Positions 28,445 through 62,404 of a DNA stretch of 64,000 nt are shown one piece after another. The DNA comes from Mobula hypostoma. Taxonomy: Eukaryota. The notes beneath the pieces are model-generated. The model made no database searches. It saw only the letters and a list, made by a program, of their open reading frames with translations, and was not told the origin of the DNA. Within the stretch, counting starts at the first letter, position 1. Every line of letters begins with the position of its first letter. Both the position numbers and the translations under genes were made by a program. Where the stretch lies: positions 93,684,001-93,748,000 of the forward strand of contig NC_086108.1 of assembly GCF_963921235.1 (NCBI RefSeq), written 5' to 3'.

Positions 28445-28480
28445 GTCCTGACGAAGGGTCTTGGCCTGAAACGTCGACTG
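28445..28480 (+). ncRNA. Minimal type I hammerhead ribozyme motif (GUC triplet)
   Basis: Core CUGACGA 28448-28454, helix II agg/cct, GAAA 28468-28471, palindromic ACGU, GUC, helix I gtc/gac. Confidence 0.7.
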
Positions 28481-28577
28481 CGCCTCTTCCTAGAGATGCT
28501 GCCTGGCCTGTTGCGTTCACCAGCAACTTTTATGTGTGTTGCTTGAACTTCTAGCATCTGCAGAATTCCTGTTGTTT
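28445..28577 (+). mobile_element. Penelope-like terminal-repeat fragment starting at the hammerhead, flanked by a ggctcatgg duplication
   Basis: gtcCTGACGAagggtcttggcctGAAAcgtcgactg...gcagaattcctgttgtttg; ggctcatgg at 28437-28445 and 28578-28586. Confidence 0.8.
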
Positions 28578-28743
28578 GGCTCATGGATAGTTCAGTGGAC
28601 CATAAGCACCAGTTGAAGTGTGAAGATTCAACTGGTGCTTATGGTCCACTGAACTATCCATGAGCCAAACTAATAGTCGAATTTTCAGGGTGAATTTAGA
28701 TTTGTGAAGATCTAAAATCTAAATTCACCCTGAAAATTCGACT
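28574..28743. repeat. Two adjacent perfect inverted repeats (44-bp and 29-bp arms)
   Basis: 28574-28617 = rc of 28627-28670; 28675-28703 = rc of 28715-28743. Confidence 0.97.
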
Positions 28744-28747
28744 CGAG

Positions 28748-29295
28748 GTAGTCATTAAGAAGGTATATATTGTGCTGGCCTTCATTAGTTAGGGGATTGA
28801 ATTCAAGAGCCATAAGGTAATGTTGAAGCTCTGTAAAACTCTGATTAGACCACATTTGGAGTATTGTGTTGAGTTCTGGTCGCCTCATTATAGGAAGAAT
28901 GTGGAAGCATTAGAGAGGGTGCAGAGGAGATTTACCAGGATGCTGCCTGGATTAGGAAATGTCTCTTATGGGGAAAGGTTGAGCGTGCTAGGGCTTTATT
29001 CTTTGGAGCAATGGAGGATGAGAGGCTTGATAGAGGTGTATAAAAACATAGGCATAGATAGAGTGGACAGCCAGTGTCTTTTTACCGGGGAGGCAATAGC
29101 TAATGGCAGAGGACTTCCATTTATGATGAGTTGAGGAAAGCTTATGGAGATGACAGAAGTAGGCTGTTTACACACAGAGCTGGGTGCCTGGAATGTGCTG
29201 GGATCAGTACAATAGGGAGCACTCTTAGGCATATGGATGTAGGAATAATGGAGGGCTATAGGTCAGATTGATTGTGGAGTGGGTTTATATAGCTC
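28748..29295 (+). mobile_element. CR1 LINE 3' fragment
   Basis: MLKLCKTLIRPHLEYCVEFWSPHYRKNVEALERVQRRFTRMLPG. Confidence 0.88.
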
Positions 29296-32200
29296 AGCTC
29301 AATATCTACCCTCCTGCTCTTTTCCCTTTGACCTACTCTTCCCAACCTCTGACTTCCTGCTCATGACATCATTAAATCTTTTCCTTTGAAATAATACTTT
29401 CTTTAACATTTTCTGATAGTCACAGCTGAGCCCTTTCCCTATTTGTTTTTTAAACGAGATGTTTATCACTGGCAAACAGTGCACCAGCTCTTTAAATGTT
29501 AATGATTGTTTATTTACTGTCAAACATATAAATGTCATTTCCCCAACTCACTTCGCATACTTTTGTATTTTGTTTTACTCTTTGCCTTCAGAATGAACTG
29601 AGTTACTTTCAATATTTATATTTAAAGGGTCGTCAGAGTCCTGATGAAAGGTCTCAGCTCTAAATGTCAACTATTTAATCCCTTTCATAGATGCTACTCA
29701 GTTCCCCTAACATTTTGTGTGTGTTGCTCAAGAGTTCCAGCTTCTGCAGAAACTCTGGTGTTTAATATATCAAATATTGTTGTTTTTGATCACTGTTCCT
29801 CACAAGGCTTTAATGCCAGATTTCCAATTAACCATCTCTCAGAACATTATACTAGATCTACAGCAAACACAAGAAAATCTGCAGATGCTGGAAATCCAAA
29901 GCAACACACACAAAATGCTGGAGGAACTCAGCAGGCCAGGCAGCATCTGTGGAAAAGAGTAAACAGCCGAGGTTTTGGGTTGAGACCCTTCCTCGGGACT
30001 GGAAAGGAATGGGAGAAGTCAGAGTAAAATTTAAAGTACCCCGTTTCCTTGCTGAATCCTTAACCTCTTTATCCAGAAGCCCGTCTCTTATACACTCCAT
30101 CAGTTTGTCCTTCAAATGTCCTAACCTGCCTCGTTCAGACAACATATAGATTAAAATTTCGGTACTATTTCTTTTCCATGTACCTGTCAATATGTTGTAC
30201 AGTTGCAATGCTTTACAGTGCCAGCGATTAGGGTTCAATTCCCACTGCTGTCTGTAAGAGGCTTGTACTGCACATTCTCCCTGTGATCGTATGGATTTCC
30301 TCCAGGTGATCTGGTTTCCTCCCACATTCCAAAGATGTGCAGGTTAGGGTTAGTAAGTTGCGGACATGCTATACTGGTGCCCAAACATGCTTCACCCAGC
30401 ACATTCTCGGACTCATTAGGGGTTATAAAACCCTAACCCTAATGTGTTAGTCATTGACACAACCAGCACATTCACTGAATGTGTAGAGGTACGTGACAAA
30501 TAAAGTTAATCTAAATGTAAATCTCATTTGTATCATGTTCTACAACACGATTACTGTGCAGAGACTTGCCATCAACCCTTACCAGTGTTTCCTGACCCCT
30601 GTAGCTACCCAGCTCCATCTGCTGATCCAACACTGCAATGTGTTGACGCAGGATCCCTGCGGATTGATGTTATCTCTTACTAATAGTGCCACCACTAGCC
30701 CCCATCCCCACGCCACTCCACATCCTCTCCTCTTCTCACCTACCCTTCCCAAATGTTAACTACCTTGGAATATTTAGTTCCCATCTTTGGACACCATGCT
30801 ACAGAATTTCTGTAATGGAAGTTAGATCATACTCATTTAAACTATTCTTGCATCCACTTTGTTGCATATACAGCATGCATTTATATTAAAGTGTCTTTAA
30901 ATTTGTCTTTTGACATGTTTCTCTACTCTGCCCTTACTTGCCTTTGTTTCCGTGACCCTCTTTATTTTGCTTAGCACATTTCCAATTTCAGCTTCCTGTT
31001 TTGTTTCTCTCTCTCCCGACTCTCCTATCGCTTCCCTTTTCCCCGTCAAGCTGCCTTAAACACTCCCAAAAAGCACCAGCAAGTCCCTTCACCCGCAGCC
31101 TGCTGTTCCACCCCACCAGGATATTGGTCCATTTCTGCTGGGGTGTAACCTGTCCAGCTTGTACCCAGCCCAGCTGTCCCAGTTCATTGGTAAATTAATC
31201 CATTATTAATCCATTACTGAGGTACAGTGTAAAACCTGTCATGTATACAAGTCTTGATGAAGGGTTTCAGTCTGAAATGTCAACTGTTTATTCCTCTCAA
31301 AAGACACTGCCTGACCTGCTGAGTTCCTCCAGCATTTTGTGTATGTTGCTCTCAATTCATTGCAAAAGTGCATTGAGGTAGTACAAGGTAAATCAATGAC
31401 AGAGTGCAGAATGAAGTGTCACAGTACAGAGAAAGTGCAGTGCAGGCAGACAATAAGATGCAAGCTCATAATGATGTAGATTGTGAGGTCAAGCATCCAT
31501 CTTATTTACTAGGGAACCGTTCAGAAGTGCTATAACTGCAGGATAGAAGCTGCCCTTGGGCCTGGTGGCACATAACTTCAGGTTTTTGTATCTTCTGCCG
31601 CATGGGAGGAGGGGAGAAGAGAGGATATTTGGGGTGGGACGGTTTTTTGATTGTACTGGCTGCCTTACTGAGGCAGCAAGAAGTATAGACAGAGTCCTTG
31701 GAGGAGAGTCTGATTTCCATGATGCTGGTCACCAAGTGTCACATCGGCAGCATCCCTCCAGCCACGTTCTCATGTGGTCTCTCTTGCTGTTTCTGAAGGT
31801 GTTGCCATGTGTACTGGGAGCAGTCCTGAATTTCCTAGTTCTCTAAATTCCCAAGTTCCCTAGTTCCCTAGTTCCATGGTCCTAGTTCCTTAAATTCAAC
31901 AACCACATTGTGTAGATATGATAGTACATTGTACTGGAGAGAGTGCGGAGGAGATCGACCTGAATGTGCCCTGATTGAAGGACTTTAGTTATGGGGAAGG
32001 ATGAGACAGGCTGGATTTGTTTTCCTGGATTGAAGGAAGCTGATGGATGACCTGTTTGTTTGTTATGTGCAATGTCGTATGACGTAGGCAATCATGGTCT
32101 TTCCGTGACATGATTGTTCTTGGCAAATTTTTCTACAGAAGTGCCTTCTTCTGGGCAGTGCATATACAAGACAGGTGACCCCAGCCATTATCAATACACT

Positions 32201-32333
32201 TCAGAGATTGTCTGCCTGGCGTCAGCGGTTGTATAACCAGGACTTGTGACGTACACCGGCTGCTCATACGTCCATCCACCGCCTGCTCCCATGGCTTCAC
32301 GCGACCCTGATGAGGGGGGAAAAGCAGGTGCTA

Positions 32334-32344
32334 GATATGGTAAA

Positions 32345-32377
<33 letters not shown>

Positions 32378-32597
32378 TTGTAACTGGGTTACTTGTCTGG
32401 ACACGCCCAGACACGCCCCTTTGCTGACTACTCCTTCGGCTCCTCCCACAGACCCCTGAATAAAGGCGATCGTGTCACTGCTCCTCCCTCAGTCCAGGAC
32501 AGATACTCAGCATGGACGTGGGTCCATTTTACTGTTAATAAAAGCCTTTCAGTATTTACTCTACTTCCAGTCTTTTGGAGTAATGGATAGTGCATCA
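32334..32597 (+). mobile_element. Probable solo LTR containing a (TA)n tract, inserted in the SINE-like repeat
   Basis: Interrupts aggtgcta|caccttgcc, which is contiguous in the 20.4-kb copy; contains AATAAA; ends ..gtgcatCA. Confidence 0.6.
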
Positions 32598-34652
32598 CCT
32601 CACCTTGCCGAGGGGTGACCTGCAGGCCAGCAGAGGGAAGGAGTGTCTTAAACCTCCTTTGGTAGAGACCTTCACTATCTCCACCCTGCCCCCCAAGGTG
32701 ACCTGGTAGAAATATAAAAAATGATATGAGGCATAGGTCAGGAGGATGGTCAATCTCTTTCCCATGCTAAAGGTATCAAAAACAAAAGGGTGTGGGTTTA
32801 AGATGTGAGGAAGGTGTTTAAAGGAGATTTCAGGGGAGGAGCACAGCTAAGCTTCTTGGTCAGCAGGGAGGAGTTGGGCCAAAGGGCCTTTTTCTGTCCT
32901 GTATGACTATATGACTCTACATAGCACAGAATGTAAAAGAAAATCCATCCAGGCAGGAGCCAGGGGGAGTCTAATAAGTTTTCAAAATGTCTTTAGAAAT
33001 CAGCATGGTGGTGGAGTTAAAAAATGTGGACTGTCACTGGACCACCACAACCTCTCCTACCAATGGTGGAGTCAAGGGAGAAGGAAATGGACATGAAATG
33101 ACAGTTGTATACAAAAGTATGAGGGGGTATAGATAGGGTAAATACAAGCAGGCTTTTTCTCACTGAGGTTGGGTGGGACTAGAACTAGAGGTCATGGGTT
33201 AAGGGTGAAAGGTGAAATGTTTGAGGGGAACCTGAGGAAGACGTCTTCACTCAGAGGGAGATGCGAGTATGGAACAAGCTGACAGTGGAAGTGGTGTGTG
33301 TAGGTTCGATTTCAAAGTTCAAAGTAAATTTATTATGAAAGTACATATATGTCACCATATGTCACCCTGAGATTTGTTTTCTTGTGGGCATTCACAGTAG
33401 ATACAAATAAGCACAATAGAGTCAATGAAAGGCTGCGCACATACCAAGACAAACTGTGCAATTACTAAATAATAAATAGGTAGTACTGAGAACATGAGTT
33501 GTAGAGTCTTTGAAAGTGAGTCCGTAGCTTGTGGAATAGTTCATTGTTGAGGTGAGTGAAGCTATCCAGGCTGGTTCAGGAACCTGATGGTTGAAGGGTA
33601 ATAACTGTTCCTGACTCTGATGGTGTAGGACCTTTGCCTCCTGTATCTCCTTCCCGAGGGCAGCAGCATGAAGAGAGCATGGCCTGGATGGTGGGGGTCC
33701 TAGATGATAGATGCTGCTTCCTTGTAGATGTGCTCATCGATGGGGAGGGATTTGCCTATGAGGGACTGGGTTGTATCCATCAGTTTTTGTAGGCTTTTCC
33801 ATTCATTGGCATTGGTGTTTCCATACCAGACCATGATGCAACCGGTTATGATGCTCGCCGCTGTGCACCTACTGTATAGAAGTTTGTCAAAGTTTTAGAT
33901 GACATGCCAAATCTTCTAAGGAATCTTCACAGACTTCAAAGATAGTAGAAGTGCTGATGTGCCTTTTTTCACATACCGGTCCCAGGACAGATCACCTGAA
34001 ATGATAACGCCGAGAGGTGACCCTCTCCACCTCTGACCCCCCAGTGAGGACTGGCTCAGGCATCTCCGGTTTCCTCCTCCTGAGGTCAATAATCAGCTCT
34101 TTGGTTGTGCTGACATTGATTGAGAGATTCTTGTGACAACACTCAACCAGATTTTCAATTCCCCCCATCTGCTGATTTGTCACCACCTTTGATTCGGCCA
34201 ACAACGGTCCTGTCATCAGCAAACTTGAATATGACATTGGAGATGAACATTGCCTTTAAGAGAAAACATTTAAGCTTCAATTGTTAAGAGAAATTTGGAT
34301 AAGTACATGGATGGGAGGTGTATGGAGGGCTATGGTCCAGGTGCAGGTTGATGGGAGTAAGCAGAATAACGGTTCAGCACAGATGATGGGCTGAGTGGCC
34401 TATTTCTGTGTTACAGTGCTCTGAGACACTAAATGAAGGAATTATGCAGAGAGCAGGGTGTGGAAATAGAGATGGTGTTGCAGCCAGAGTACAACAAGTC
34501 TGAGTGGTTTATACACCGGGAACACTTTTGTGAGCAGCAACCACCTTTGGTTTACATTGCTCAATAAGATAATACTTTGTAAATAGAGCCATCTTATTTC
34601 CAGTGCTTTGTGCAAAGGTTTAAATATTGTCTTCATTTCTGAATGCAATTAG

Positions 34653-34933
34653 CAGCCAAGGGGCAGTCCCAGAACAGCCAAGCTGTGGAGAACACCCGGA
34701 ACGCTGCATCCACTTCCGAGGTGAACGCAAGCGGGCAGCCGGCAGCGGAGAGCTTGGATCCAGCCCCCGCCGAGGAGCCGTCCGACCCCACCGGCCAGCC
34801 GCCAGCACCAGGGAGAGATGGCAAGGGCTCCAGGCAAATCAAAGGCACAGACCTTCTAAAGCAGCAGTTCAAGGCATTGTTCATCAAAAGGTTGAACCAT
34901 GCTACCCGCAGTCAGAAGGATTTCGTGGCACAG
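34653..34933 (+). CDS. ABCA4: ABCA4 exon ~27, 281 nt (278 nt if the distal NAGNAG acceptor is used)
   Basis: aattag|cag| acceptor, CAG|gtagag donor; ...GRDGKGSRQIKGTDLLKQQFKALFIKRLNHATRSQKDFVAQ; the 5' boundary is less certain. Confidence 0.88.
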
Positions 34934-35629
34934 GTAGAGTGAAACATGTCAGGCCTCCCTGACTTAAGTTGTCTTTTGATTAATATTTATTCATACCTGG
35001 ACATAGCATTGAACAGAGGAGTGGGAATGAACAAACCAACACTGAAGGAGCTTCCAACTGCACAACAAAGTGTTTTAGACCATAAGACCATAAGATATAG
35101 GTGCAGAATTAGGCCATTTGGCCCATCTATTCTGTTCTGCCATTTCATTATGGCTGATCCATTTTCCTTCTCAGCTCCAATCTCCTGGCTTCTCCCTATA
35201 ACCCTTCATGCCCCGACTGATCAAGAATCTATCAACTTCTGCCTTAAGTATATCCAATGGCTTGGCCTCCACAGCCTAGGGGAGGAAAAAGCATTTAATG
35301 ATTTGGACCAAGATCTTGCTCAAGCATCTGCACAATCTCGTGCTGTTTATTTTATTGTACGTTCCCACTTCCTCCTCTCCCAACAAAACTTTGTGAAATC
35401 TGAGCATTAAAAGATGCCATCAAAAGCACCATATGACATACAGTATAAACACTGCCAGTCCTGACCCTGTCGCCTCTACCAACCCACGCTGTTTCTGATG
35501 ACACATTCATCTTTCATCAGAAATTCTGCGTTATACTCCAGCGTGAGAAGCTTCTTTCACCACCCCAGCTCCAGCTTGAGCTGGCAGAGATCACTTGACT
35601 GGTTACAGAGCAAACATCAAACCTGTAGT

Positions 35630-35631
35630 TT

Positions 35632-35664
<33 letters not shown>

Positions 35665-35678
35665 TCCATCCATCCATC
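35630..35678. repeat. (TG)n microsatellite followed by (TCCA)n
   Basis: Direct reading. Confidence 0.95.
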
Positions 35679-36690
35679 CAGGCACGTGTGCACTTCCCTC
35701 TCACACTGTGCAATGTTCCTACAGGCAACCAGAAATAGAAATAACTCAATTTTAATCTTAAGATCCAATCATTAATAAACCTTGTCAAGACAAACCATTG
35801 CTCTGGCCAGTTCTTCCTCCACATTTGTTTTTGCAGCTGTTAATCTGTACTGAATTATGTTCATTTTCTTGTTCAGCCACCGAACAAGAAAATGAGCATA
35901 ATTCAGTCCTGATTAATAGCTTCATCTTCAAAGTGAAAGGATTGTGTCTATATACCCCTTTCTAGAGGCAATCAGTTTCTGATAAAGGTCGATATTCACT
36001 CACAGATCCCCAAATTATCTAGCTGTTGCTGCATCTAAATGTATGTGCAATGTGCCTTCTTTAGTTTGACTGCAGCCAGTATATTGTGAATTGATTTTGA
36101 CCAAGGGGTTCTGGGATCAACACAGAAATCAATGCTGACACGATAATAGAATACTGGGGTGTGCTGTCTCTCAAATGATCCAGGTTTGAGGAGGAGCAGC
36201 ATGATTATGCCAAGTGTCTTGGCCAATATTTGTCCTTTCCAAGTAACATCATGAAAACAGGTCATTATTACACAGTTTTTTCTGGGATTGCATCGTGCAA
36301 ACTGCCACCTTTCCTACATTAAGAATGTCAGGGTTATATAAATACAAGTTTTATTTTAAACCATTAGGAAATTCTCAGATTTGGCAGAGTGTTTGGAACT
36401 GCTCCCAAGCCATGACAATGATCCTTCAGAGACATGTGGATCAGTGCTGTTTCAGTGGTGGGGCTCTGTTGCTTTTGGAGTAACTACAATGAGCCTCAGA
36501 AAGTGAACAAATAATCGTGCTTCCCACACTCATATCTGGATATTTATGTACATATTATAATCATTTTTAAATCTTGACAACTTGTGAAAGTGGAGGGCAG
36601 ATTCAGGACTATAAAATTACAGCTGTGTTATTGCTGACTCTCAGGTATAAAACCCATCCTGCACAAATTAAACTTCTTTCTTTTTAACAG

Positions 36691-36815
36691 TTTCTCCTTC
36701 CTGCCAGCTTTGTGCTTTTGGCTCTTTTCTTCTCTCTTATAATCCCTCCATTTGGAGAGTATAAAAGTTTAACGATCCATCCATGGATGTACGGTAAACA
36801 ATACACCTTCTTCAG
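36691..36815 (+). CDS. ABCA4: ABCA4 exon ~28, 125 nt (TM7)
   Basis: tttaacag|TTT...AG|gtacgt; [41 protein letters not shown](S). Confidence 0.95.
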
Positions 36816-40145: not shown

Positions 40146-40476
40146 TTGGGATCTGTGAGTAAAATTTATTTAGTTTGGATCATTCTGACACAAGCGACCA
40201 CAGCATACAAAGATTCCTGATGGTCAACATGTCTTGAATAGCTGATGGCTGTGCACCATTGTGCTGTGACAAAGGATTAATTTATTTGTAAATAAGAGCA
40301 TATGAAGCAGTTCTGTATAAATGTTCTGCATAAACCAGACGAACCAGTAAATTTTAAGCACAAACCAAGTGCAGAAACTATATCTGGATATCCCCCCGTT
40401 CACAATATTCTTTTTACATTAAATGCCTGTATTATTTTAAGATGAAGATGTAGAGAGGTAGTTCTGGTCAAAATGA

Positions 40477-40998
40477 CACTCACAACACGCTGGAGGAACT
40501 CAACAGGTCGGGCAGCATCCGTGGAAAAGATGGGTCAACGTTTCGGGCCAGAACCCTTCGTCAGGACTGTAGAGGGAAGGGGCAGAGGCCCTATAAAGAA
40601 GGTGGGGGGAGGGTGGGAAGGAGAAGGCTGGTAGGCTCCAGGTGAAAAACCAGTAAGGGGAAAGATAAAGGGGTGGGGGAGGGGAACAGGGAGGTGATAG
40701 GCAGGAAAGGTGAAGAAGGAATAAGGTATGAACATAGAATTCTCCAACTTCCGGTAATTCCCTCCCCCTCCCTTCCCCTATCCCTATGTCACTCTGCCCC
40801 CTCCCCCAGCTGCCTATCACCTCCCTCATGGTTCTGCCTCCTTCTACTACCCGTTATGTTTTCCCCTATTCCTTCTTCACCTTTCCTGCCTATCACCTCC
40901 CTGCTCCCCCCCCCACCCCCTTATCTTTCGCGGCCTGCTGAGTTCCTCCAGCGTGTTGTGAGTGTTGCTTTGACCCCAGCATCTGCAGATTATTTTGT
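40477..40998. mobile_element. Penelope-like insertion with an inverted terminal-repeat structure and 16-bp TSD
   Basis: gttctggtcaaaatga at 40461-40476 and 40999-41014; minus-strand repeat with hammerhead, then plus-strand GMNIEFSNFR* and UTR. Confidence 0.88.
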
Positions 40999-41065
40999 GT
41001 TCTGGTCAAAATGATTGTCATGATCTGCTTGCTAGGTAACATGTTCATTCCCTACATCTCAACAG

Positions 41066-41164
41066 CAATGAACGCCCATCTGATAAGAAGCTGAGCCAGA
41101 TGACAGACGTCCTGGTGAACAAGCCTGGATTTGGGACTCGGTGTATGAAGGACAACCCCATCGA
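41066..41164 (+). CDS. ABCA4: ABCA4 exon ~29, 99 nt (ECD2)
   Basis: caacag|C...GA|gtaaga; NERPSDKKLSQMTDVLVNKPGFGTRCMKDNPI(E). Confidence 0.95.
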
Positions 41165-41326: not shown

Positions 41327-41516
41327 GGGCTACACCTGCAGTAACCACTCCAGCAACTGGGAAACCCCGCGAGCTGACCACACAGTTGTCAACCTGCTGA
41401 AATCCCCCTTTTATTCTGAAAACAACCCTTCGCCGCCATGCCAGTGCAGCACGAGAAACCGGCTCATCATGCTTCCCGACTGCCCCCCAGCGGCTGGAGG
41501 CCTTCCTCCACCACAG
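41327..41516 (+). CDS. ABCA4: ABCA4 exon ~30, 190 nt (ECD2)
   Basis: aaacag|G...CAG|gtacca; GYTCSNHSSNWETP...NPSPPCQCSTRNRLIMLPDCPPAAGGLPPPQ. Confidence 0.95.
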
Positions 41517-41763
41517 GTACCAACCGCATTCTGTAAGAGTGCTTCCGAATGAATGAGTCAATCAGGCAGACCTGAGTGAGTGTGCAGGAGCCAGTGCGAG
41601 GAGGTAGATACGTGCGTGCGTGCGTGCGTGTGCGTGTGTGTTTGTGTGTGTTTCTGCATGCGTGTGTGTTTCTGCATGCGTGTGCGTCCATCTAAGTCAA
41701 GTCAAATTTATTGTTATTTAACTATATATATGTATACCATCAAAAGAGGCAACATTTCTCTGA

Positions 41764-42503: not shown

Positions 42504-42546
<43 letters not shown>

Positions 42547-42640: not shown

Positions 42641-42749
42641 ATACCTGTAGATTAGCTCGACCCCTGCTAGAAGATTGTTTGAGGTGAGGTGCAGCATTGA
42701 AGATTAAGGAAAGAGTTGTTAAGGTAGTGGCCTTGCTTGAGTTCTCTGC

Positions 42750-45700
42750 ACTGTGACTGGCTCTGCTGTGGTTTACATATGGCTTATGTGGCGTCATATA
42801 TCAGCAGAAAGATGATTGCAAATTTCTGTGGGGAGCCAGCCGACGTCAACCTCCACGATAAGACCAAACAGAATCCTAACCTCAGTCACGGAACTGCAGT
42901 ACACAGCATGCATTCAGACTCTGAGCTCCAAGTCTGCTACAACCCATTCACTGATGTGTGTGAGAGACTGGCCCCACACTAAACATCTCCAAAGAGAGAT
43001 CGCTTACCGATCGGCCTTCACTAGATATCTTTGGCTGCTGACAGTGAAGGTCCATGAAGAGATCTTGGGGAAAAAAGTGGACCAATTCCCATACCAAAGT
43101 GACCACTCCCACTGATGAAGAAATCTACTACTCCCTGCAGTGCGTCAGCACAAACTTTGGTCTTCTGAGGAAAGAAGTGTTTGAAGTTATAAACCACAAA
43201 CCGAGCATAAATTCATGGTCTACAGAGCAGAAGTGATTCCTGGCCTCCAGTACTCTTCAGAGACAGAGTGGATTATGAAAAGGGTGTTGAAAGGCTTGAG
43301 GGGAATAGAGCCAGGTTACATGGATGGGCGAGGGCAGGGTAGTTAGAAAAATAGGAAATCATCCAATTTGATGGAAAAAGTAGAAGTACAAGCTATTCTT
43401 CAAATGAGGAGGTTAGTTCATAACAGAGGGATGGGAACCAGTGCAGAGAGACAGAGGGGTGTAAAGTGAGGGTAGAAGCAAAAAGTACAAAGGAGAAAAG
43501 TAAAAGTGGCAGGCCGACAAATCCAGGGCAAGCATTAAAAAGGGCCACTTTTCAACATAATTGTATAAGGGCTAAGAGAGTTGTAAAAGAGCGCCTGAAG
43601 GCTTTATGTGTCAATGCAAGGAGCATTCGTAATAAGGTGGATGAATTGAAAGTGCAGATTGTTATTAATGATTATGATATAGTTGGGATCACAGAGACAT
43701 GGCTCCAGGGTGACCAGGGATGGGAGCTCAAAGTTCAGGGATATTCAATATTCAGGAGGGACAGACATGAAGGAAGGGGAGGTGGGGTGGCGTTGCTGGT
43801 TAAAGAAGAGATTAACGCAATAGAAAGGAAGGGCATAAGCCAGGAAGATGTGGAATCGATATGGGTAGAGCTGCGTAACACTAAGGGGCAGAAGACGCTG
43901 GTGGGAGTTGTGTACAGGCCACCTAACAGTAGTAGTGAGGTCGGAGATGGTATTAAACAGGAAATTAGAAATGTGTGCAATAAAGGAACAGCAGTTATAA
44001 TGGGTGACTTCAATCTACATGTAGATTGGGTGAACCAAATTGATAAAGGTGCTGAGGAAGAGGATTTCTTGGAATGTATGCGGGATGGTTTTTTGAACCA
44101 ACATGTCGAGGAACCAACTAGAGAGCAGGCTATTCTGGACTGGGTTTTGAGCAATGAGGAAGGGTTCATTAGCAATCTTGTCGTGAGAGGCCCCTTGGGT
44201 AAGAGTGACCATAATATGGTGGAATTCTTCATTAATATGGAGAGTGACATAGTTAATTCAGAAACAAAGGTTCTGAACTTAAAGAGGGGTAACTTTGAAG
44301 GTATGAAACGTGAATTAGCTAAGATAGACTGGCAAATGACACTTAAAGGATTGACGGTGGATATGCAATGGCAAGCATTTAAAGGTTGCATGGATGAACT
44401 ACAACAATTGTTCATCCCAGTTTGGCAAAAGAATAAATCAAGGAAGGTAGTGCACCCGTGGCTGACAAGAGAAATTAGGGACAGTATCAATTCCAAAGAA
44501 GAAGCATACAAATTAGCCAGAGAAAGTGGCTCACCTGAGGACTGGGAGAAATTCAGAGTTCAGCAGAGGAGGACAAAGGGCTTAATTAGGAAGGGGAAAA
44601 AAGATTATGAGAGAAAACTGGCAGAGAACATAAAAACGGACTGTAAAAGCTTTTATAGATATGTAAAAAGGAAAAGACTGGTAAAGACAAATGTAGGTCC
44701 CTTGCAGACAGAAACAGGTGAATTGATTATGGGGAGCAAGGACATGGCAGACCAATTGAATAATTACTTTGGTTCTGTCTTCACTAAGGAGGACATAAAT
44801 AATCTTCCAGAAATAGTAGGGGACAGAGGGTCCAGTGAGATGGAGGAACTGAGCGAAATACATGTTAGTAGGGAAGTGGTGTTAGGTAAATTGAAGGGAT
44901 TGAAGGCAGATAAATCCCCACGGCCAGATGGTCTGCATCCTAGAGTGCTTAAGGAAGTAGCCCAAGAAATAGTGGATGCATTAGTGATAATTTTTCAAAA
45001 CTCGTTAGATTCTGGACTAGTTCCTGAGGATTGGAGGGTGGCTAATGTAACTCCACTTTTTAAAAAAGGAGGGAGAGAGAAACCGGGGAATTATAGACCG
45101 GTTAGCCTAACGTTGGTGGTGGGGAAACTGCTGGAGTCAGTTATCAAGGATGTGATAACAGCACATTTGGAAAGCGGTGAAATGATCGGACAAAGTCAGC
45201 ATGGATTTGTGAAAGGAAAATCATGTCTGACGAATCACATAGAATTTTTTGAGGATGTAACTAGTAGAGTGGATAGGGGAGAACCAGTGGATGTGGTATA
45301 TTTGGATTTTCAAAAGGCTTTTGACAAGGTCCCACACAGGAGATTAGTGTGCAAACTTAAAGCACACGGTATTGGGGGTAAGGTATTGATGTGGATGGAG
45401 AATTGGTTAGCAGACAGGAAGCAAAGAGTGGGAATAAACGGGACCTTTTCAGAATGGCAGGCGGTGACTAGTGGGGTACCGCAAGGCTCAGTGCTGGGAC
45501 CCCAGTTGTTTACAATATATATTAATGACTTGGATGAGGGAATTAAGTGCAGCATCTCCAAGTTTGCGGATGACACGAAGCTGGGTGGCAGTGTTAGCAG
45601 TGAGGAGGATGCTAAGAGGAAGCAGGGTGACTTGGATAGGTTGGGTGAGTGGGCAAATTCATAGCAGATGCAATTTAATGTGGATAAATGTGAAGTTATC

Positions 45701-48700
45701 CACTTTGGTGGCAAAAATAGGAAAACAGATTATTATCTGAATGGTGGCCGATTAGGAAAAGGGGAGGTGCAACGAGACCTGGGTGTCATTATACACCAGT
45801 CATTGAAAGTGGGCATGCAGGTACAGCAGGCAGTGAAAAAGGCGAATGGTATGCTGGCATTTATAGCGAGAGGATTCGAGTACAGGAGCAGGGAGGTACT
45901 ACTGCAGTTGTACAAGGCCTTGGTGAGACCACACCTGGAGTATTGTGTGCAGTTTTGGTCCCCTAATCTGAGGAAAGACATCTTTGCCATAGAGGGAGTA
46001 CAAAGAAGGTTCACCAGATTGATTCCTGGGATGGCAGGACTTTCATATGAAGAAAGACTGGATGAACTAGGCTTGTACTCGTTGGAATTTAGAAGATTGA
46101 GGGGGGATCTGATTGAAACATATAAGATCCTAAAGGGATTGGACAGGCTAGATGCAGGAAGATTGTTCCCGATGTTGGGGAAGTCCAGAACGAGGGGCCA
46201 CAGTTTGAGGATAGAGGGGAAGCCTTTTAGGACCGAGATTAGGAAAAACTTCTTCACACAGAGAGTGGTGAATCTGTGGAATTCTCTGCCACAGGAAACA
46301 GTTGAGGCCAGTTCATTGGCTATATTTAAGAGGGAGTTAGATATGGCCCTTGTGGCTACGGGGGTCAGGGGGTATGGAGGGAAGGCTGGGGCGGGGTTCT
46401 GAGTTGGATGATCAGCCATGATCATAATAAATGGCGGTGCAGGCTCGAAGGGCCAAATACCCTACTCCTGCACCTATTTTCTATGTTTCTATGTTTCTAT
46501 GTATGCTTAGATAGGGTATGTATGTGATAAGAAGATCAACAAAATTGCTTATTCTGGAAATCTTTAAGATAAAAGCAAAAAATATTGGAACCCCTCAGCA
46601 AGTCAGGCAGTATCTTTGGAAAGAGAACAGTTAATGTCTCAGATCGGGGCCTCTTCATCAGATCTGGGTAAGAGTGAAAAGCAAGTTAGCTTTCAGTGGC
46701 AGAGGAAGTTGACGAGGAATGGAGAGAACAAAGGAAATATTTTTGGTAGAAGGAGACCAAATAAGCCAATGTACCAGCTGGGCACATTATTCTTCTTTAT
46801 CTGTATTTTATGATGCTAATAGCAAGTCTGTGGGATCTGACCAGGTTCAAGTTCTTTATCAACTGACAGAACATATATACAACCAAACAAAACAAAGTTC
46901 CTCCAGATCACGGTGCACCCACGCAATATATATCACACACAGCACATAAACCAAAATATCAAACTAAAAATAAGTTAATAAAATATAATTCAAAATGCAT
47001 GCAGTAAAGTGCGACACGGGCAAACAATAAACAGCTCGTTGTCCTCGTGATGAGACCTCTGTGGTGGCAGAGTATTCACTAGTCTCGCAGCCTGGGGGAA
47101 GAAGGTGTTACCCAGTCTCCTTCCTGATGGTAGTGGGTCAAAGAGATTGTGGGATGGGTGGCAGGGATTCTCAACAACGTTCCTAGTAAATGTCATAAAT
47201 AGTGGGGGAGGGAGACCCCAGGGATCCTCTTGATGGTTTTTACTATCCTCTGTAGGGTCTTGCAGCTTCCATATCACACAATGATGCAGCCAGACAAGAC
47301 ACTCTTGTTGGTGTTCCTCTAGAAAGTTGCTAGAACAGGGGTGGGGAGCCTTGCATGCCTCATTCTCCTCAGCAGGCCTGCTATACCAGATGAAAATGAA
47401 CAAATGATATTGCTGATTCTGATTGAGTCAGAACAAAAGAGTAAATTACCTAAATTTGCAGGAATTAATATTGAACCTGAAAGGCCACATTGTGCTAATC
47501 CTGAAGCTGGGCCTCATTTCGGCAGTGCAGGAGGGGACAGACAGGAACATCAGAATGGGAGAGGGATGAGGATTAAAGTGACCTTGAATGTGAATCACAA
47601 AAGTCAACATGCAGGTACAATTAAGATGGCAGGTGGTTTGTTGGTCTTTTTCTGAACAGATATGAGGCAATTTACTCCAGGCTGTGGTGAGACCAAATCT
47701 GAAATGTGATCAGACCTAAGGAGTGCCTCCATGAGATGGGCTTATTCTCCCTTGGGTTAAAGAAGACTATGAGATGATCCTGCTGTAGTGTAGAAACCTG
47801 ATAGGATAGATTCAGGGATAATTTCTGTTCTGGATAGCTTGTCTAAGATGTGTCATTCTAAGTGAGGATGAAAAGTTTCTTCAGCCAGATCTGGCAGATC
47901 TTGGGAATTCTCTACCTAAGAGGCCATGGAGGGAGTGTCACTGAGCACGGCAGACATTGGGCCAGATGACAACGTGCTGGAGGAGCTCAACAGGTCAAGC
48001 AGCATCTGTGGGAGGAAGGAAATTGTCAATGTTTCGTGTTAAAACCCTGTACCGAGATAGAGCCCCAGCCCTGCATTTCACACTCCCTGAGTACAAATAT
48101 TGATGGGTTTTAGTTGGCAAGGAAATCAAGGGATATATAGTTAATGCAGGAGAATTTAAAAGATAGTACTGAATGCAAAACAGGCACACCAGGCTAAATA
48201 TCTTATGCCTGATTCTATTTCTTATGTTCTTATAGGAGGTTGAGCGAGTTAGGGCTTTTCTGTGTGAAGTGAAGGAGGGTGAGAGGTGGCCTGATAGAGG
48301 TGTACAAGATGATAAGGAGCATAGATCGAGTGGGCATCCTGCACCTTTCCCTCCAGGGTGGAAATTCTCATACAGGAGGGCATAATTTTAAGGGAATTGG
48401 AGGAAAGTATAGGGGGATTGTCAGAAGTAGTTTTTTTTTACACAGCAAGTGATAAGTGTGCAGAACACTCACCTCGGGTCATGGTAAAAGCAGATACATT
48501 AGAGAGATTCAAGAGACTCTTTGATAGGCATGTGGACAAAAGAAAAAATGGAGGGCAATTTGGGAGGAAAACATTAGATTCTTCTCGGAGTAGTTAAGAG
48601 ATTGGCACAACATTGTGGGCCAAAAGACCTGTACTATGAAACCTGGACTGTTTACAGAAAGTAACTCAAAACACTGGTCAGTGGCCCCCAACATTGTCTC

Positions 48701-48950
48701 CACAAAGCCCTCCAGAATACAAGCAGAATATGTGAGTTAATATTAGTGACCTTTCCATACCATCATCCCCGATAGTGAGATGCCAATTAAACTCAGCCAG
48801 CTCTGACTGGCAGGCCACCTACACACCAGGCTCTCTGAACAGACACCGGACTCCAAGCTCCACCACAGCAAGAGTTTACCAAATGATTCAACAATGTTCT
48901 CAAAGCCTCCTTTTGGGGCACAAATCCCAAATGACGTGGTGACCCATGAC
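42750..48950 (+). mobile_element. Old RTE LINE remnant in two parts (~42750-43265 and ~48636-48950) separated by nested insertions
   Basis: ..DEEIYYSLQCVSTNFGLLRKEVFE..VIPGLQYSSET resumes as ETWTVYRK..QHCLHKAL. Confidence 0.6.
43425..46501 (+). mobile_element. Young CR1 LINE with full ORF2 (APE endonuclease + RT) broken by one stop codon
   Basis: ORFs 43466-45664 and 45668-46402 are in one frame; [38 protein letters not shown]; (TTCTATGT)3 tail. Confidence 0.96.
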
Positions 48951-50534
48951 CCTTTAATTGAACAGGGAATGTTTACGGTAGTGTTGATAACCTCAGTCCC
49001 TTTGTTAGGAGTGACAGAAGCCTGATATAATAGGGTGAATGAGTACTACCTCCTAATCTATGCACCCACTTTTCCCCTTTAGCACCTCCTGCCCCATTGG
49101 TTGCAGAATCAGTGGGTCCAACATTGGCCCCAGAACACTCAGAACTGAGCATTTACAGGCAATTAGTCGGCCAACACTTGGAGTATTGTGAGTAGTTTTG
49201 GGTCTCTTATCTAGGAAAGGGTGTACTGGCATTGGAGAGGGTCCAGTGAAGGTTTATGAGAATGATCCCGGAATGCAAGGGTTAATGCATGAGGAGTGTT
49301 TGAGGCTCTGGAGCTGTACTCACTGGAGTTTGGAAGAATGAGGGGGGATCTCTATCCCATATTGGAAGTTCCAGATAGAGTGGATGTGGAAAGAATGTTT
49401 CCTATAGTGGGGAAATCTAGGACTGGGGGTATAGCCTCCAAATACAAGGTCAGAGGTGAGGAGGAATCTCTTTAGCTCAGAGCCTGGTGACTCTGTGGAA
49501 CTCATTGTCACAGATGGCTGTGGAGACCAAGTTATTTGGTATATTTAAAGTGGATGCCAATGGGTTCTTTATAAGTTACCTAGAGAAGGCAGGAGAATGA
49601 GGTTGAGAGGGAAAATAAATCAGCCATGATGGAATGGTGGAGCAGGCCTGAATGGTGGAATATCCTAATTCCACTCCTATGTGTAACTGGAGTGGAAACA
49701 TATCATCCTCAACCTCAAACAACTGCTTAAGATATTTGAATGTGGGTGTGTATCAGTCTGTGTCTGTGTTATGTTATTACAGAGTCCTGATGAAACATTA
49801 CTTGCAGATTAAAACAATATACAGTTCATTGTCGGCATATAATTATAGCTGGAAAATTAACTGGTCCAAGATGATCGTACTTATGTGTATACGTGTCTGT
49901 AAGTGAATCTCCATCTGTGCATGTGATTTTGCTGTTGTTAGAATGAAATAAACAGTAGATGGGAAAGGGGATTCAGAATCAGGTTCATTATCACTGATAT
50001 CTGTCATGAAATGTGTTGTTTTGTGGCAGCAGTACAGTGTAAGACATAGAAATGACTATAATTCACAGTAATAAATAATCAGAGCAAAAGAGGAATAACA
50101 GCTCCTCTTCATGGGCTCATGCGCCGTTCAGAGTTCTGATGGAGGAGGGGAAGATGCTGCTCCTGAGACATTGAATATGGGTGCTCAGCCTTAGCCGCGA
50201 CGGTAGTAATGAGAAATGGGAGTGCCCTGGATGGTGAGGCTCCTTAACGATGGGTGGCACCTCTCCAGCCCCACCCAGGGCACCACCTCCTGATGGTGTC
50301 CTCGATGGTGGGGAGGGATCTGCCCTTGATAGATTGAGTCTACAATCCTCCACAGCCTCTCTTCCAATCCTACGCATTGGAGTCTCAGTACCAGGTGGTA
50401 CCATACAATTGTAGAAATTTCATCCATTATAACAATATCTTATAAACTGCTTGGAGCTTAATTCTGTTAACAAAAAAACAGTAATTTAGTTTCAGTTTTT
50501 TAATGTGGCAGCCTCTTTTAATGTTAATATTCAA

Positions 50535-51140
50535 TTCAAGTTTAATTGTCATTCAACCATACATGAAAACCTGTGAATATAGCCAAATGAGACAGTGTTA
50601 CTCTGGGGCTAAAGTATAAAGCACAGTGCAACAGACACAGAGGACAAAGCACATACAAGACAGCAAACATATAAGATATCAGTAAGATACAGCCATGCAA
50701 AAAGATCTGCACACAGAACTCTGCAGTCAACCACAATACAGCTTGTCTTTTGCTGAATGAAGGTTGGGGGAGGGGGGCAGCACCAACTCCGGCCTAGATG
50801 CCGTGCTACACCACCCCCGGTGGAGCACCCCAGCTCTGACACCTCTCTCCTGGCGGTTGTAAACAGGCAACACCCTGGCTTGAGGCCTAGTCTTTGCTAC
50901 GACCGAGGGCACACAGCAGCTCCCACGCCGTCCGCCAATAAATCAGTGAATTGAACTTGCAGCATTCAACATTAACAATGTCCAAAGGGTCTTGTGACCA
51001 CAAGTCACTCACTATCAGACTGCAAGGCTCCATCAGCTCAGGCAGCAGCACAATGCACAGCTCCTTCATTTTGTCTGCCAACGAGCAACTCACTGATGAG
51101 GTAGACCTGCCGTACTTTAAGTCTTTAATGTCTAGGAGGA
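50535..51140. repeat. ~600-bp interspersed repeat; second direct copy at ~51917-52580
   Basis: Both begin ttcaagtttaattgtcattcaacca and share acttgcagcattc.acattaacaatgtccaa and gagcaact..ctgat..ggtagacct. Confidence 0.8.
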
Positions 51141-51283
51141 TTTTGCAAACATGAAAACTATGGTTAAAAAGGACAATAGCACCTTTTGTTGACCCGCAGC
51201 AGCCTCTGTGATCGAACGTGCCACAATCTGACTGGAACAAATCTTAGCCTTTGACACAAATTAAGTTGCTTTCTCCATTTCAG

Positions 51284-51378
51284 AGGGTCCAGAGCTCGAC
51301 AGACATTCTGCAGAATCTCACTCAAAGGAACATATCGGATTTCCTGGTTAAAACATACCCCAAATTGATAAAGAGCAG
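51284..51378 (+). CDS. ABCA4: ABCA4 exon ~31, 95 nt
   Basis: atttcag|AGG...AG|gtagga; [31 protein letters not shown](S). Confidence 0.95.
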
Positions 51379-51551
51379 GTAGGACTTGTTCTACCTTCAG
51401 GCTTCTGCACATTCAGAACTTAGTATTCGTAAACAATATCATTGTCCAAGTAACACGCTCTTACCTGAATTAAAAGTATCTAGTTCTCACCTCAGAGGAT
51501 TTCTGATCATTTTGAATATTTAATCTTTCTGCCTTTGTTTGTGTTCTTCAG

Positions 51552-51584
51552 CATGCAGAGCAAGTACTGGGTGAACGAACGCAG
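51552..51584 (+). CDS. ABCA4: ABCA4 exon ~32, 33 nt
   Basis: tcttcag|C...AG|gtatgg; MQSKYWVNER(R). Confidence 0.93.
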
Positions 51585-54500
51585 GTATGGAACCAGTTTA
51601 ATCAATATACAGTAAATCCTAAGTGTTTGATATATGGAACTGAGATGAGAAAAACATAAAGTGAATGTGCTATATCCAACGTCCTGTAAAACCAGGGGTT
51701 TTAAGTGTTGTGGTGGGGTTTTTTTGTGCTTTCCTGCCCCAATAACTTTATTCCACAAAGTGAAGTTTAAAAAAATCACGATAATGAATCATTTCTGCCC
51801 TCAAAGATGCACTCCAGCCCGAGCAGTGCTCTTCGAAGTTCGAAGTTTGAAGTTCAAAGTAAATTTCTTTTCAAGCATGTGTACTGAATGTTACCTTGAG
51901 AGTCAGTTTCTTCAGGTTCAAGTTTAATTGTCATTCAACCAAATGTGATTCCCTATGAATACAGCCAAATGAAACAGTGATACTCTGGGCTCAAAGTGCA
52001 AAACACAGTACCAACAGTCACACACAGCACAAGGCACATGCAACGCATATAAACTAGCAGTAAAATACAGTCACACAAACAATCTATAACCCAAGTCCCT
52101 GAGTCCATGAATATTGCAGCAGTCTGCAGTGAAACACAATCCGGCTTGTCTTCTGCTAAGTGAACACTGGGGGCAGCACCGATTCCAACATGGATGCTGT
52201 GTCACACCACCTCCTCCACTTTGATGGAGTGCCCAACTCCAATGCCTCACTCTGGCTGGCTGAAAGCATACGACGCCTTGGCTTGAAGCCTAGTCCTCGC
52301 CACGACCGAGGTCCCACAGCTCCTCTGCCATCTGCCAATAAACCAGTGAATCAGACTTGCAGCATTCCACATTAACAATGTCCAACAAGGTCTCGTGATC
52401 ACAAGAAAGGTGACCAAGACGATCTCTCCCTGTTAGACTGCACACTTGTTTTACACACCAACTTCACTCTGCTGCAGATAGCATCACAGTCCTCATCAAA
52501 TCCAGATCCTTCAGTTTCTCCACCAATGAGCAACTTGCTGATTGGGTAGACCTACAGTACCTTAAATTCTTAATGTCCAGCGAGGTCGTGCAATTGCAAA
52601 AAATACGTTTGATAAAGGGAATATCACCTTGGGTTGACCCCTTAGAAACCCTTGTGACATCTTACTAGAAGTCATCTTGTTGGCACTTAGAGGAAAAAAA
52701 CTTAAGAAATACAATTGAATCTTTGAAAAAACATACATAAGCAAAGACTGACAAGCAACCAATATGCAAGAGAAGACAAACTGTGGAAATAATGCTGAGA
52801 ACATGAGTTGTAAAATCCATAAAAGTGAGTCTGTAGGTTGTGGAATCAGTTCAGAGCTGAGGTGAGTGAAGTTATTCATGCCAGTTCTGGAGCCTGATGG
52901 TTGTAGGGTAATAATTGTTCCAGAACCTCGTAGTGTGGGTCCTAAGTCTTCCATACCTGCCCAATAGAAGTAGCAAGAAGAGAGCATGGCCTGGTTGATG
53001 GGGGTCTTTGATGATGGATGCTGCTTTCCTGTGACTGCACTCCACATCAGTGTACTCAATGGTGGGGAGAGTTTCATGGGTGACGGACTGAGCTGTATCC
53101 ACTGCCCTCTGTGGTCTTTTCCATTCCTGGGCATTGGTGTTTCTGTACCAAGCCGTGATGGATACTCTCCACTGTACATCTTTACAAGTTTGTCAAAGCT
53201 TCCAAGTCATGGGCTAGACCTCCAGTGTATTGTTGGACATTGTGTTCTCTGTCTCCATTTCACCCAGTCACAAACCTGCCTTGCAAAAGGGGCAGGCAGT
53301 CAGAATGAACAGACTTCCGATGCCCTGTTGCTTAGAACTGTAAGTGGTCACCTTGTTCAGACCCAGGAGCTGTCAGGTGAATAGATCCCCAGACCAGCCC
53401 AACCTTCTCTGCTCCAAGTGCTCAGAGATCAGATCAGCTTAAGTGCAGCTAAAACCTGAGAAGCAGTCTCTTTAAGGACCCAAACGTAATCTGCAATCTC
53501 CTTCCCGCCATATAGATGTGGAGCACAAATCTCTCCAGGCCAGAGAACTGCAGGCAGCCTAGAAGCGAGCCTATTTAAATATATATTAAAAAAGTTTTTT
53601 TTGTCTCTGCTTTAAGCTATTTGGTCCTGTTGAAATACTCCTTGTTGGCTAAAACAATTCACAGTGCTTAAGGTGACCCCCCTCTGGACCATCTCCAATG
53701 TCAGCACATCCTTTCTGAAGATAAGGGGCCCAGAACTCCAAGTGCTGTCTCACCAAGGCCTTATAAAGCTTAAGCAGGATTGATTGCCTAACGTAATTGC
53801 CCTTGTCTAGAGGTGGAGGTCATCCCTTGAAGCACTGCATTTCGTTTAGTGAAATGAGTCCCATAATTCGGCAGTCAGCCCAGTTTCAATGAAGAAAAGA
53901 CATCATATTTCTGAGTTCAGATCCCCCGTGACCTGGAGGGGAATCTGGAGTTAATGCTGTTTCCATGCTCTCGTGGGGAGACAAATGCTTTACTTGGGCG
54001 GTGTATAGGTTGGTCATGGCCTCGCGTAGAGCGAGCATTACATACTCTGTTTGGTGTCATGGTGAAACAAATGCTTTAGCTGGAGGGATGGACGTCGCCT
54101 TGTGTAGAATTAACATTGCATACATGGATGGTAGAGGTATGGAAGGCCATGGCCCTGGTGCAGTTTGATGGCAGTTTAAATGGCTCAGCAGGGACTAGAT
54201 GGGCTGAAGGGCCTGTTTCTGTGCTTTACTTTTCTATGACTCTATGCCTCTGTACCCTGTTAAATGTCAAGGAGAAGCAACTGGGGAGGGTTGGTCATCG
54301 CCTCGTGTAGAGTGAACATTACTCACCCTGTTGGCCCAAGTTTGAATGTTATCCAGATGCTGCTGAGCACTGACATCTTCTCTTAATTTTCTGATGGCTG
54401 TAAAGAGAACTGAGCATTGTGCAATCTTTGTGAAACATCCACACAATGACCTTTTGAAAAAGAACAGGTCACCAAATCTGGTAGGGATGAGAGTGTTGTC

Positions 54501-54601
54501 CTGAGTAACTCGTGCAGGGAAGCCCTGAGTCTGAGGTGACAGACCTCCTTCTCGTCATTGTTTCTGCATTCACTTGATGTGTGGCTGTTTCATCACTCCA
54601 G

Positions 54602-54707
54602 GTATGGCGGGATCTCCATCGGAGGAAAACTTCCAGGTCTACCCGTCAACCATAAACAGATAAGCAGCTTTTTCACCCAGCTGGGCCGCCTGCTGAATAT
54701 CACTGGG
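54602..54707 (+). CDS. ABCA4: ABCA4 exon ~33, 106 nt
   Basis: actccag|G...GGG|gtaggc; YGGISIGGKLPGLPVNHKQISSFFTQLGRLLNITG. Confidence 0.95.
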
Positions 54708-54973
54708 GTAGGCTGCTCAAACCTTCATTTTCTACCTTTGCAAAGTAGCTGGTTGCTCGGCCTAGTTCAGTGGTTAATTGTATTACACTTCACATGATGT
54801 GGTTTACCGAAGCGAAGGAAGTTGTAACTGATCAACACTACTCTTTTAGTCAGTTCCCTTGCAATCAGAAACTAATCCTCAACTATTTCCCTGCTCCTGA
54901 CCACCCCTCCCATCCTATCATTTCGGATCTCCCCCTCTCCCTCCTACCTTCAATCTCTAGCTCTTCTTTCAGT

Positions 54974-55011
54974 TAGTCCTGACGAGGGGTCTCAGCCTGA
55001 AACGTCGACTG
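54974..55011 (+). ncRNA. Minimal type I hammerhead ribozyme motif (GUC) within a Penelope-like repeat (~54880-55075)
   Basis: tagtc CTGACGA ggggtctcagcct GAAA cgtc gactg. Confidence 0.7.
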
Positions 55012-62400: not shown

Positions 62401-62404
62401 TTTT

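Follow-up and report, generated by a model that had tools for sequence, protein, structure and literature searches.

The 64,000-nt window analysed here carries an ABCA4-like gene on its plus strand (10874-59318), with approximate exons at 10874-11070, 11480-11560, 14298-14503, 22004-22043, 34650-34933, 36691-36815, 41067-41164, 41328-41517, 51284-51378, 51553-51585, 54602-54707, 56901-56976, 57965-58136 and 59136-59318. ABCA4 is a retinal transporter gene. Self-matches within the window pile up deepest, to a depth of 14, on one repeat, which the first-pass annotation rightly singled out as a highly abundant short repeat. It is represented by 19 fragments in a profile search, and 15 of these span a hammerhead segment. 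In four of the 15, the minimal type I hammerhead core is complete at all 13 bases, with C3 at 28448(+), 54979(+), 40564(-) and 15311(-). Using a scan pattern of CUGANGA, helix II, GAAAC-GU-H and a helix I of at least 3 bp, no such motif was found in 200 Markov-resampled windows. The motifs lack a helix III loop at their palindromic 15.2-16.2 segment, carry one additional base between A9 and 10.1, and have a helix II of 4 bp. A scan against Rfam, a check suggested in the first-pass annotation, gave 35 matches to the window up to E=10, none of them to a hammerhead family; we read this blank as a consequence of the models needing helix III and do not take it as counter-evidence to the motif.

The four cores had been called intact, a description that holds for the 13 core bases but not for the helices around them. 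None of the four motifs has the full cagtc/gactg helix I: the 28448 motif forms three Watson-Crick and two G.U pairs, the 54979 motif four Watson-Crick pairs and one G.U, and the 40564 and 15311 motifs 3 bp each. At the first pair of helix II (10.1-11.1), both sense copies have G.U and the 15311 motif has A.C, against G-C in seven of the 15 copies and in the majority sequence. The cleavage triplet is GUC in the sense copies, hereafter A and B, and GUU in the two antisense motifs.

Copy A (28446-28576, +) is a 131-bp 5'-truncated insertion that starts partway through the 5' strand of helix I and has the long 3' tail. It is flanked by 10-bp target-site duplications (28436-28445 and 28577-28586), and the outer part of that helix I strand comes from the left one. 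Its hammerhead occupies 28445-28480, and a cut at its GUC would follow 28475. Copy B (54890-55076, +; 5' edge approximate) is a terminal-repeat fragment of about 190 bp with the short 3' end, lying about 270 nt downstream of an ABCA4 exon; its hammerhead occupies 54974-55011, and a cut would follow 55006. Both cut positions match those predicted earlier, and both copies do lie on the ABCA4 pre-mRNA strand, as had been proposed. Copy A is a recent insertion: it is present in run X5, which is closer than run X9, and missing at the orthologous site of a relative in X9 (skip 28435->28577, with 10 ambiguous letters), so that cross-species orthologous conservation fails for this copy. The two copies are 90% identical and belong to one subfamily, and both carry C7 and U11.1. 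The shared diagnostic bases pointed out earlier are markers of a high-copy subfamily, and their predicted effect is a weaker active fold. The idea that U11.1 arose by private CpG decay, separately in A and in B, was considered and rejected, the site not being among the listed positions changed in at least 5% of depth (X1, X5, X21). Both copies retain all 13 core bases and GUC, an observation that points against inertness.

The remaining copies are more heavily rearranged or decayed. A compound head-to-head insertion (40477-40998) lies between 16-bp target-site duplications (40461-40476 and 40999-41014); its minus arm holds a hammerhead at 40533-40569 (GUU, helix I 3 bp), and its plus arm, which opens with the last endonuclease-like codons (40725-40754), has lost its hammerhead. 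Copy D (15160-15765, -) comprises an endonuclease-like C-terminal frame (15601-15765, frameshifted after), a pyrimidine-rich terminal repeat and a tail, with its hammerhead at 15280-15316 (GUU, A.C at the helix II base, helix I 3 bp). A second endonuclease-like C-terminus is found in copy O (6451-7059, -; broken frame at 6909-7059), whose hammerhead near 6480 is decayed. Decayed copies cluster at 10169-10724, namely 10169-10308(-), 10368-10484(-) and 10601-10724(+), with an inverted tail piece at 10486-10546(+), and two of opposite strand lie within 29626-30017 (29626-29752, +; 29875-30017, -). Further decayed copies are located at 1018-1117(+), preceded on the 5' side by a short inverted piece of the tail (1002-1016); at 4934-5037(-), where the cleavage site is deleted; at 31235-31363(+), where C3 and C15.2 are changed; and, from the profile search, at 46543-46683(-) and 47969-48048(-). 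All 11 decayed copies named in the first-pass annotation were recovered among the 15 hammerhead-spanning fragments.

The hammerhead sits at the 3' end of the repeat, and the 5' truncation is variable, with ends that fall anywhere between the hammerhead and a point 600 nt upstream, in the endonuclease-like frame. On the 3' side two ends are favoured, separated by about 33 nt (equivalents of 28540-46 and 28575-78), inverted pieces are joined head to head (1002/1018, 10484/10486, 15988-16139 and 40477-40998), and a clear target-site duplication was found for two of the 16 intervals searched. In run X1, 48,195 contigs align to 651 bases, indicating a very abundant repeat. The peptide of the longest copies matches the ray proteins P0122 and P0124 (tblastn E 3.6e-10 for copy O against P0124); the other three of five protein matches, P0121, P0123 and P0125, were dropped as unrelated repetitive proteins. 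For residues 200-274 of P0124, eight of ten structure rows are GIY-YIG clusters, one with RT and HTH_animal, all below the family-naming bar. Searched directly, the window's own peptides gave no Pfam family (two peptides), none of 20 and none of six candidates in word-index searches for GIY-YIG, and a best score of 0.75 in the Atlas search. The GIY-YIG C-terminus previously assigned to the longer copies is accordingly probable through the homologue P0124 only. No copy in the window extends beyond about 600 nt, and no reverse transcriptase lies there. Inverted 5' copies and a tail of 30-40 bp are hallmarks of Penelope-like elements (PMC8557442), and both inverted copies and a tail are present here; the repeat is likely a Penelope-like element.

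Minimal hammerheads in the terminal repeats (pLTRs) of metazoan Penelope-like elements were described by Cervera & De la Pena in 2014 (PMC4209133), and the anatomy of the window motifs fits that dimer-type kind, as the first-pass annotation had held: a type I core, no helix III loop, a palindromic ACGU, an extra base after A9, a short helix I, and mostly solo copies with some opposite-strand pairs from truncated elements. The pairs at 10169-10724 and 29626-30017 resemble the opposite-strand pairs, 100-700 bp apart, reported there alongside solo motifs. In contrast to the Schistosoma motifs of that study, with a helix II of 7-8 bp, helix II here has 4 bp, and the highly conserved G10.1-C11.1 pair is replaced by G.U in the A/B subfamily. 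As in the Poseidon element PAc of Anolis carolinensis (Frangieh et al. 2024, PMC11167929), a terminal-repeat hammerhead follows a C-terminal endonuclease, here a probable one, and two 3' ends define a tail, and extension of both strands would explain the head-to-head insertions; however, reverse transcription of PAc starts in an AC-rich stem-loop, whereas the window ends are GU-rich on the hammerhead strand. The sense-strand intronic position recalls domesticated ribozymes such as the amniote RECK, CTCL and DTNB hammerheads (PMC6155905) and the HDV-like Cpeb3 ribozyme (half-life 2-3 min; PMC10919898), but conservation across species marks those ribozymes, and copy A is instead a repeat that inserted recently and carries a dimer-dependent motif. 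One supplementary file of PMC4209133 contains no shark or skate terms, our literature search, with most subscription papers and some supplements outside its reach, found no earlier shark or ray report, and one chondrichthyan genome was sampled in the preprint of Li et al. (bioRxiv 10.64898/2026.07.22.740005).

Excess conservation of the core, proposed earlier as a test of function, was not observed across the 15 window copies. In a pairwise tally, non-CpG core positions were kept in 131 of 147 cases (89.1%) vs 564 of 647 (87.2%) in the 3' body (Fisher p=0.58), a comparison of modest power, as the copies come from several subfamilies and the majority sequence derives from the same copies. All ten non-CpG core bases were kept in five of 14 copies (expected 4.6), and CpG sites in 57 of 87 cases. 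The pairwise tally replaced a MAFFT-based one because two alignment rows were shifted, and it agrees with that earlier result (core 82% vs flank 85%, p=0.38). For helix covariation, 80.5% of cells were paired vs 77.3% after shuffling, with 28-116 of 500 shuffles reaching the observed measures and two rows indel-shifted. In run X1, ribozyme CpG sites were changed less often than a downstream CpG (6-7% vs 14-16%), which would speak against inertness, but run X9 had no such gap (9-10% vs 9-12%). Run X21, guessed to be RNA, is continuous across the cut site, with C17 changed in 1.6% of depth vs 6.2% in DNA; we do not count this as evidence because contigs show neither ends nor strand.

By folding energy, copies A, B and C are predicted to adopt an inactive rod. 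The active A:B dimer lies 10.0-11.6 kcal/mol above two monomers, compared with 5.8 for the in-window majority motif, and 16.5 kcal/mol above the best inactive dimer; nearest-neighbour energies omit core tertiary contacts and score the majority motif unfavourably too, so only the ranking is usable. In 220-nt context folding, the probabilities of helices I and II were at most 0.03, a window-dependent and weak result. In these models, C7, common to A and B, is predicted to favour the rod, and C7 together with U11.1 to disfavour the active fold. In published relatives, the minimal hammerhead is inactive as a monomer and of low activity as a dimer (PMC4209133), cleavage of the Anolis motif requires the element's protein and was not visible as RNA-seq ends (PMC11167929), and eight of nine Xenopus dimers did not cut (bioRxiv 10.64898/2026.07.22.740005).

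These data bear directly on the earlier suggestion that A and B could pair within the ABCA4 pre-mRNA and cut intronic RNA. Both copies are sense, with complete cores and GUC, a 14-bp A-B cross-pairing can be drawn, and a fast intronic ribozyme can lower its host mRNA (PMC10919898). However, A and B occupy separate introns with 26,531 nt and seven exons between them, and a double cut ahead of splicing would remove those exons. Splicing of the first intron has probably taken place by the time the second copy is transcribed. Given also the energy penalty of the active dimer relative to inactive pairing, the recent origin of A, a core kept no better than its flank and shared bases that mark a subfamily, cutting by the A/B pair is unlikely, and a double hammerhead formed across the transcript is extremely improbable. 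It is somewhat easier to conceive, though still improbable, that sense copies are occasionally cut in trans, by same-subfamily transcripts or element protein, imposing a slight burden on long genes: the family has a very high copy number (the 48,195 X1 contigs on 651 bases), protein-assisted cleavage is known for the Anolis element (PMC11167929), and tandem retrozymes are under-represented in Xenopus introns. Against this, C7 and U11.1 should make the active fold less favourable, core conservation is not in excess, and hammerhead-bearing copies in the mapped gene are four sense and five antisense of nine, too few to test.

The short copies had also been proposed to form a retrozyme-like family. 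They resemble non-LTR retrozymes (Cervera & De la Pena 2020, PMC7229834; Li et al. 2026 preprint) as short non-coding type I hammerhead repeats akin to Penelope-like terminal repeats, from which animal retrozymes appear derived (bioRxiv 10.64898/2026.07.22.740005), and at 10169-10484 one decayed copy follows another in head-to-tail order. Canonical tandem hammerheads are, however, typical of retrozymes (PMC7229834), which form fixed-unit tandem arrays and circles, whereas the window holds dispersed, variable-length, 5'-truncated monomers with target-site duplications and inverted pairs. The repeat occurs in none of the window's ten tandem arrays, both cores of the single head-to-tail pair are decayed, and no tandem units each with a complete hammerhead were found in the window. 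The 5' ends vary from the hammerhead to 600 nt upstream, and back-joints, among those listed, have depths of 19-129 vs millions for the repeat. A self-standing family spreading via small circular RNAs is therefore very improbable.

We consider it highly probable that the motifs are the 3'-end minimal hammerheads of decaying, 5'-truncated, likely Penelope-like copies, and we infer that they are most likely inert passengers in the ABCA4 introns. As a plausible mechanism, the RT-endonuclease protein of the full element would copy element RNA from the tail, and copying would mostly halt after 100-600 nt, leaving one hammerhead per copy. In the parent element, cleavage by the motif probably requires either two adjacent tandem repeats acting as a dimer or the help of the protein that the element encodes; a copy standing alone in the genome would instead fold into the rod, with G5-G8 paired with C15.2-C17 and the core hidden, and would afterwards drift by CpG decay. 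A more speculative and improbable extension is that this is a young, very abundant ray subfamily with its hammerhead locked off by two shared changes, U11.1 and C7, the latter completing the inactive rod. Residual cutting of sense-strand intronic copies, in trans or with protein help, would then burden long genes such as ABCA4 throughout the genome, and selection against this burden would have promoted the silenced subfamily and skewed the strand distribution of intact copies.

Nothing new is learned about ABCA4 itself; the finding adds a cartilaginous-fish example, of very high copy number, to the class described in 2014. Were host pre-mRNA indeed cut by copies of this sort, splicing and the pattern of insertions would be shaped across the genome by a retroelement ribozyme that each gene holds many times over, and the high copy number makes the question of cutting testable from the genome alone, by comparing strand bias between intact and decayed cores.

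A descriptor scan of the window recovers four complete minimal hammerhead motifs, against none in 200 Markov-resampled windows. Two lie on the plus strand, in copies A (28446-28576; C3 at 28448) and B (54890-55076; C3 at 54979), and two on the minus strand, in copies C (the minus arm of a compound insertion at 40477-40998; C3 at 40564) and D (15160-15765; C3 at 15311). The majority motif of the in-window copies has one additional base following A9, a helix II of 4 bp and a palindromic ACGU replacing helix III; it corresponds to the min-HHR described by Cervera and De la Pena in the available text of PMC4209133. No hammerhead is among the 35 matches of the Rfam search of the window, one of the checks proposed in the first-pass annotation. 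That annotation called the four cores intact, which holds for the 13 core bases, all kept in every motif, but not for the helices and cleavage site: helix I has three Watson-Crick pairs and two wobbles in A, four and one in B, and just 3 bp each in C and D; the basal pair of helix II is a G.U wobble in both A and B but A.C in D; and the cleavage triplet is GUU in C and D. Copy A begins at 28446, directly after a 10-bp target-site duplication, so that host DNA supplies the outer 5' strand of its helix I. With a profile built from nine copies we find 19 fragments of the repeat, 15 of which cover the hammerhead segment and include all 11 positions previously listed as decayed hammerheads.

The repeat copies have common 3' ends, and their 5' ends range from a point within helix I (A) to ~600 nt upstream (D, and copy O at 6451-7059, minus strand). 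Contigs aligned to the copy A region place the 3' joints at 28540-46 and 28575-78, ~33 nt apart, and four insertions in the window are head-to-head with tails outward, that at 40477-40998 being flanked by a 16-bp duplication. Penelope-like elements are characterised by frequent 5' truncation, an inverted 5' copy and a tail of 30-40 bp, according to the portion of PMC8557442 consulted. The reading frame ending the longest copies is similar to parts of two ray proteins (E 9e-6 and 5e-4), identified from Hemitrygon and Hypanus, and one of the two finds copies D and O with E ~1e-10; the ray hits make a ray the likely host organism. In a comparison of that homologue's predicted structure, 8 of 10 rows are GIY-YIG clusters, the label proposed earlier for the C-terminus of longer copies, but all rows fall below the family-naming threshold, and direct searches for a family label returned nothing for the window peptide or, in one search, for the homologue; the endonuclease label, reached through the homologue, is therefore probable, not proven. 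The window copies contain no reverse transcriptase. The endonuclease-like peptide is also spliced into annotated ray gene models (P0122 and P0124, the matched proteins), a RecQ5 isoform included, reflecting either exonisation or annotation error.

The host gene, whose exon at 59136 has homologues named ABCA4, has 14 mapped exons on the plus strand (10874-59318); copy A sits within the intron that spans 22044 to ~34650, and copy B follows the exon that ends at 54707 by ~270 nt. A:B pairing, possible on paper, would span 26,531 nt and seven exons, and we regard it as highly improbable. Alone, A, B and C are predicted to fold as a rod that pairs G5-A6-C7-G8 with C15.2-G16.2-U16.1-C17, with a stability no greater than that of shuffles (z ~ -0.5). 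Folding energies leave out tertiary contacts and are therefore used only for ranking: the drawn active A:B dimer is predicted to be less favourable than the two separate monomers by 10.0-11.6 kcal/mol and than the best inactive dimer by 16.5, and the computed dimer penalty is 5.8 for the majority motif and 10.8 with C7 and U11.1 added. By this ranking, the supposedly diagnostic bases would work against cleavage. Summed depth, which is not a copy number, is in the millions over the repeat versus ~10 on its flanks, and T at 11.1 is absent among the listed sites changed in at least 5% in runs X1, X5 and X21; bases common to A and B (90% identity over 101 nt) thus mark a high-copy subfamily and not, as had been argued from them, a paired device. 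Copy A is a recent insertion, since a contig of X9, a run from another organism, skips from 28435 to 28577 with 10 ambiguous letters, its empty site; in X5, from a closer source, the flank continues into the element. Sporadic cleavage in trans, whether by any transcript of the family or assisted by the element's protein, is unlikely, if a more plausible residual than A:B pairing. In the sections of PMC11167929 available, the Anolis motif cleaves only once the element's protein is added, is dispensable for in vitro insertion and has no RNA-seq ends at its site. A Schistosoma min-HHR is described as lacking activity in monomeric form and having weak activity in tandem dimers or trimers (PMC4209133, in part), slow intronic ribozymes as having no effect on splicing (Fong 2009, as cited in the text seen of PMC10919898).

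That the short copies form a retrozyme family is very doubtful: such a family needs tandem units with hammerheads, by the excerpt of PMC7229834, and the repeat is involved in none of the 10 tandem arrays of the window. Nor do in-window copies bear out excess conservation. Measured against the in-window majority, in a small sample of mixed subfamilies, non-CpG core bases match in 131/147 cells (89.1%) versus 564/647 (87.2%) in the 3' body (p=0.58), and CpG sites in 57/87. All ten non-CpG core bases are kept in 5 of the 14 copies with enough body, 4.6 being expected from their own body divergence, and helix covariation shows no clear excess, 28-116 of 500 shuffles reaching the observed values. 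The pattern looks like ordinary post-insertion decay; run X1, which may derive from the window's own source sample, leans the opposite way, with ribozyme CpG sites changed in 6-7% of depth versus 14-16% at a downstream CpG, whereas in X9 both are changed alike.

Directly 3' of copy A lie two perfect hairpins (28574-28743; arms of 44 and 29 bp). They arise from a 75-nt insert in which both flanks are copied in inverted orientation; a 9-bp repeat (28619, 28703) bounds this insert on each side. One arm copies the element's last 4 nt, so the insert formed during or after the insertion of copy A; it may have arisen when a second staggered break was repaired by fold-back synthesis from its two ends, or may be an artefact of the assembly. 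X9 depth ends at ~28618 and resumes at ~28703 at equal value, which fits absence of the insert, the joint not being among those listed. A third, older hairpin (35832-35924; 43-bp arms, 88%, 7-nt loop) is unlinked to the repeat. Elsewhere, 43424-46402 (plus strand) holds a nearly intact LINE reading frame (746 + 245 aa, interrupted by one stop; by eye it resembles an endonuclease and RT), which we take to be of CR1 type, with related pieces at 17308-18198, 62322-63671 and 8536-9153. Also by eye, 2553-3800 (minus) has fragments resembling an LTR-retrotransposon integrase and protease region, and 60226-60528 (minus) a Tc1-like transposase fragment. About 5 of 15 repeat copies start no more than a few bases from the 5' edge of the hammerhead (28445, 29636, 31250, 1018, 10484) and none at the cut site; these edge starts, small in number, may reflect reverse transcription stalling on the rod fold.

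This class of hammerhead-bearing repeat is already known. A literature search of limited coverage found no shark or ray report; a preprint (10.64898/2026.07.22.740005), in the part available, sampled one chondrichthyan and describes 8 of 9 Xenopus dimers as uncut. We consider it very likely that the copies follow from how the parent element replicates: its protein would reverse-transcribe starting from the tail and usually end early, leaving one hammerhead per insertion, and the motif would serve the parent element's tandem transcript, while lone copies would misfold and then decay.
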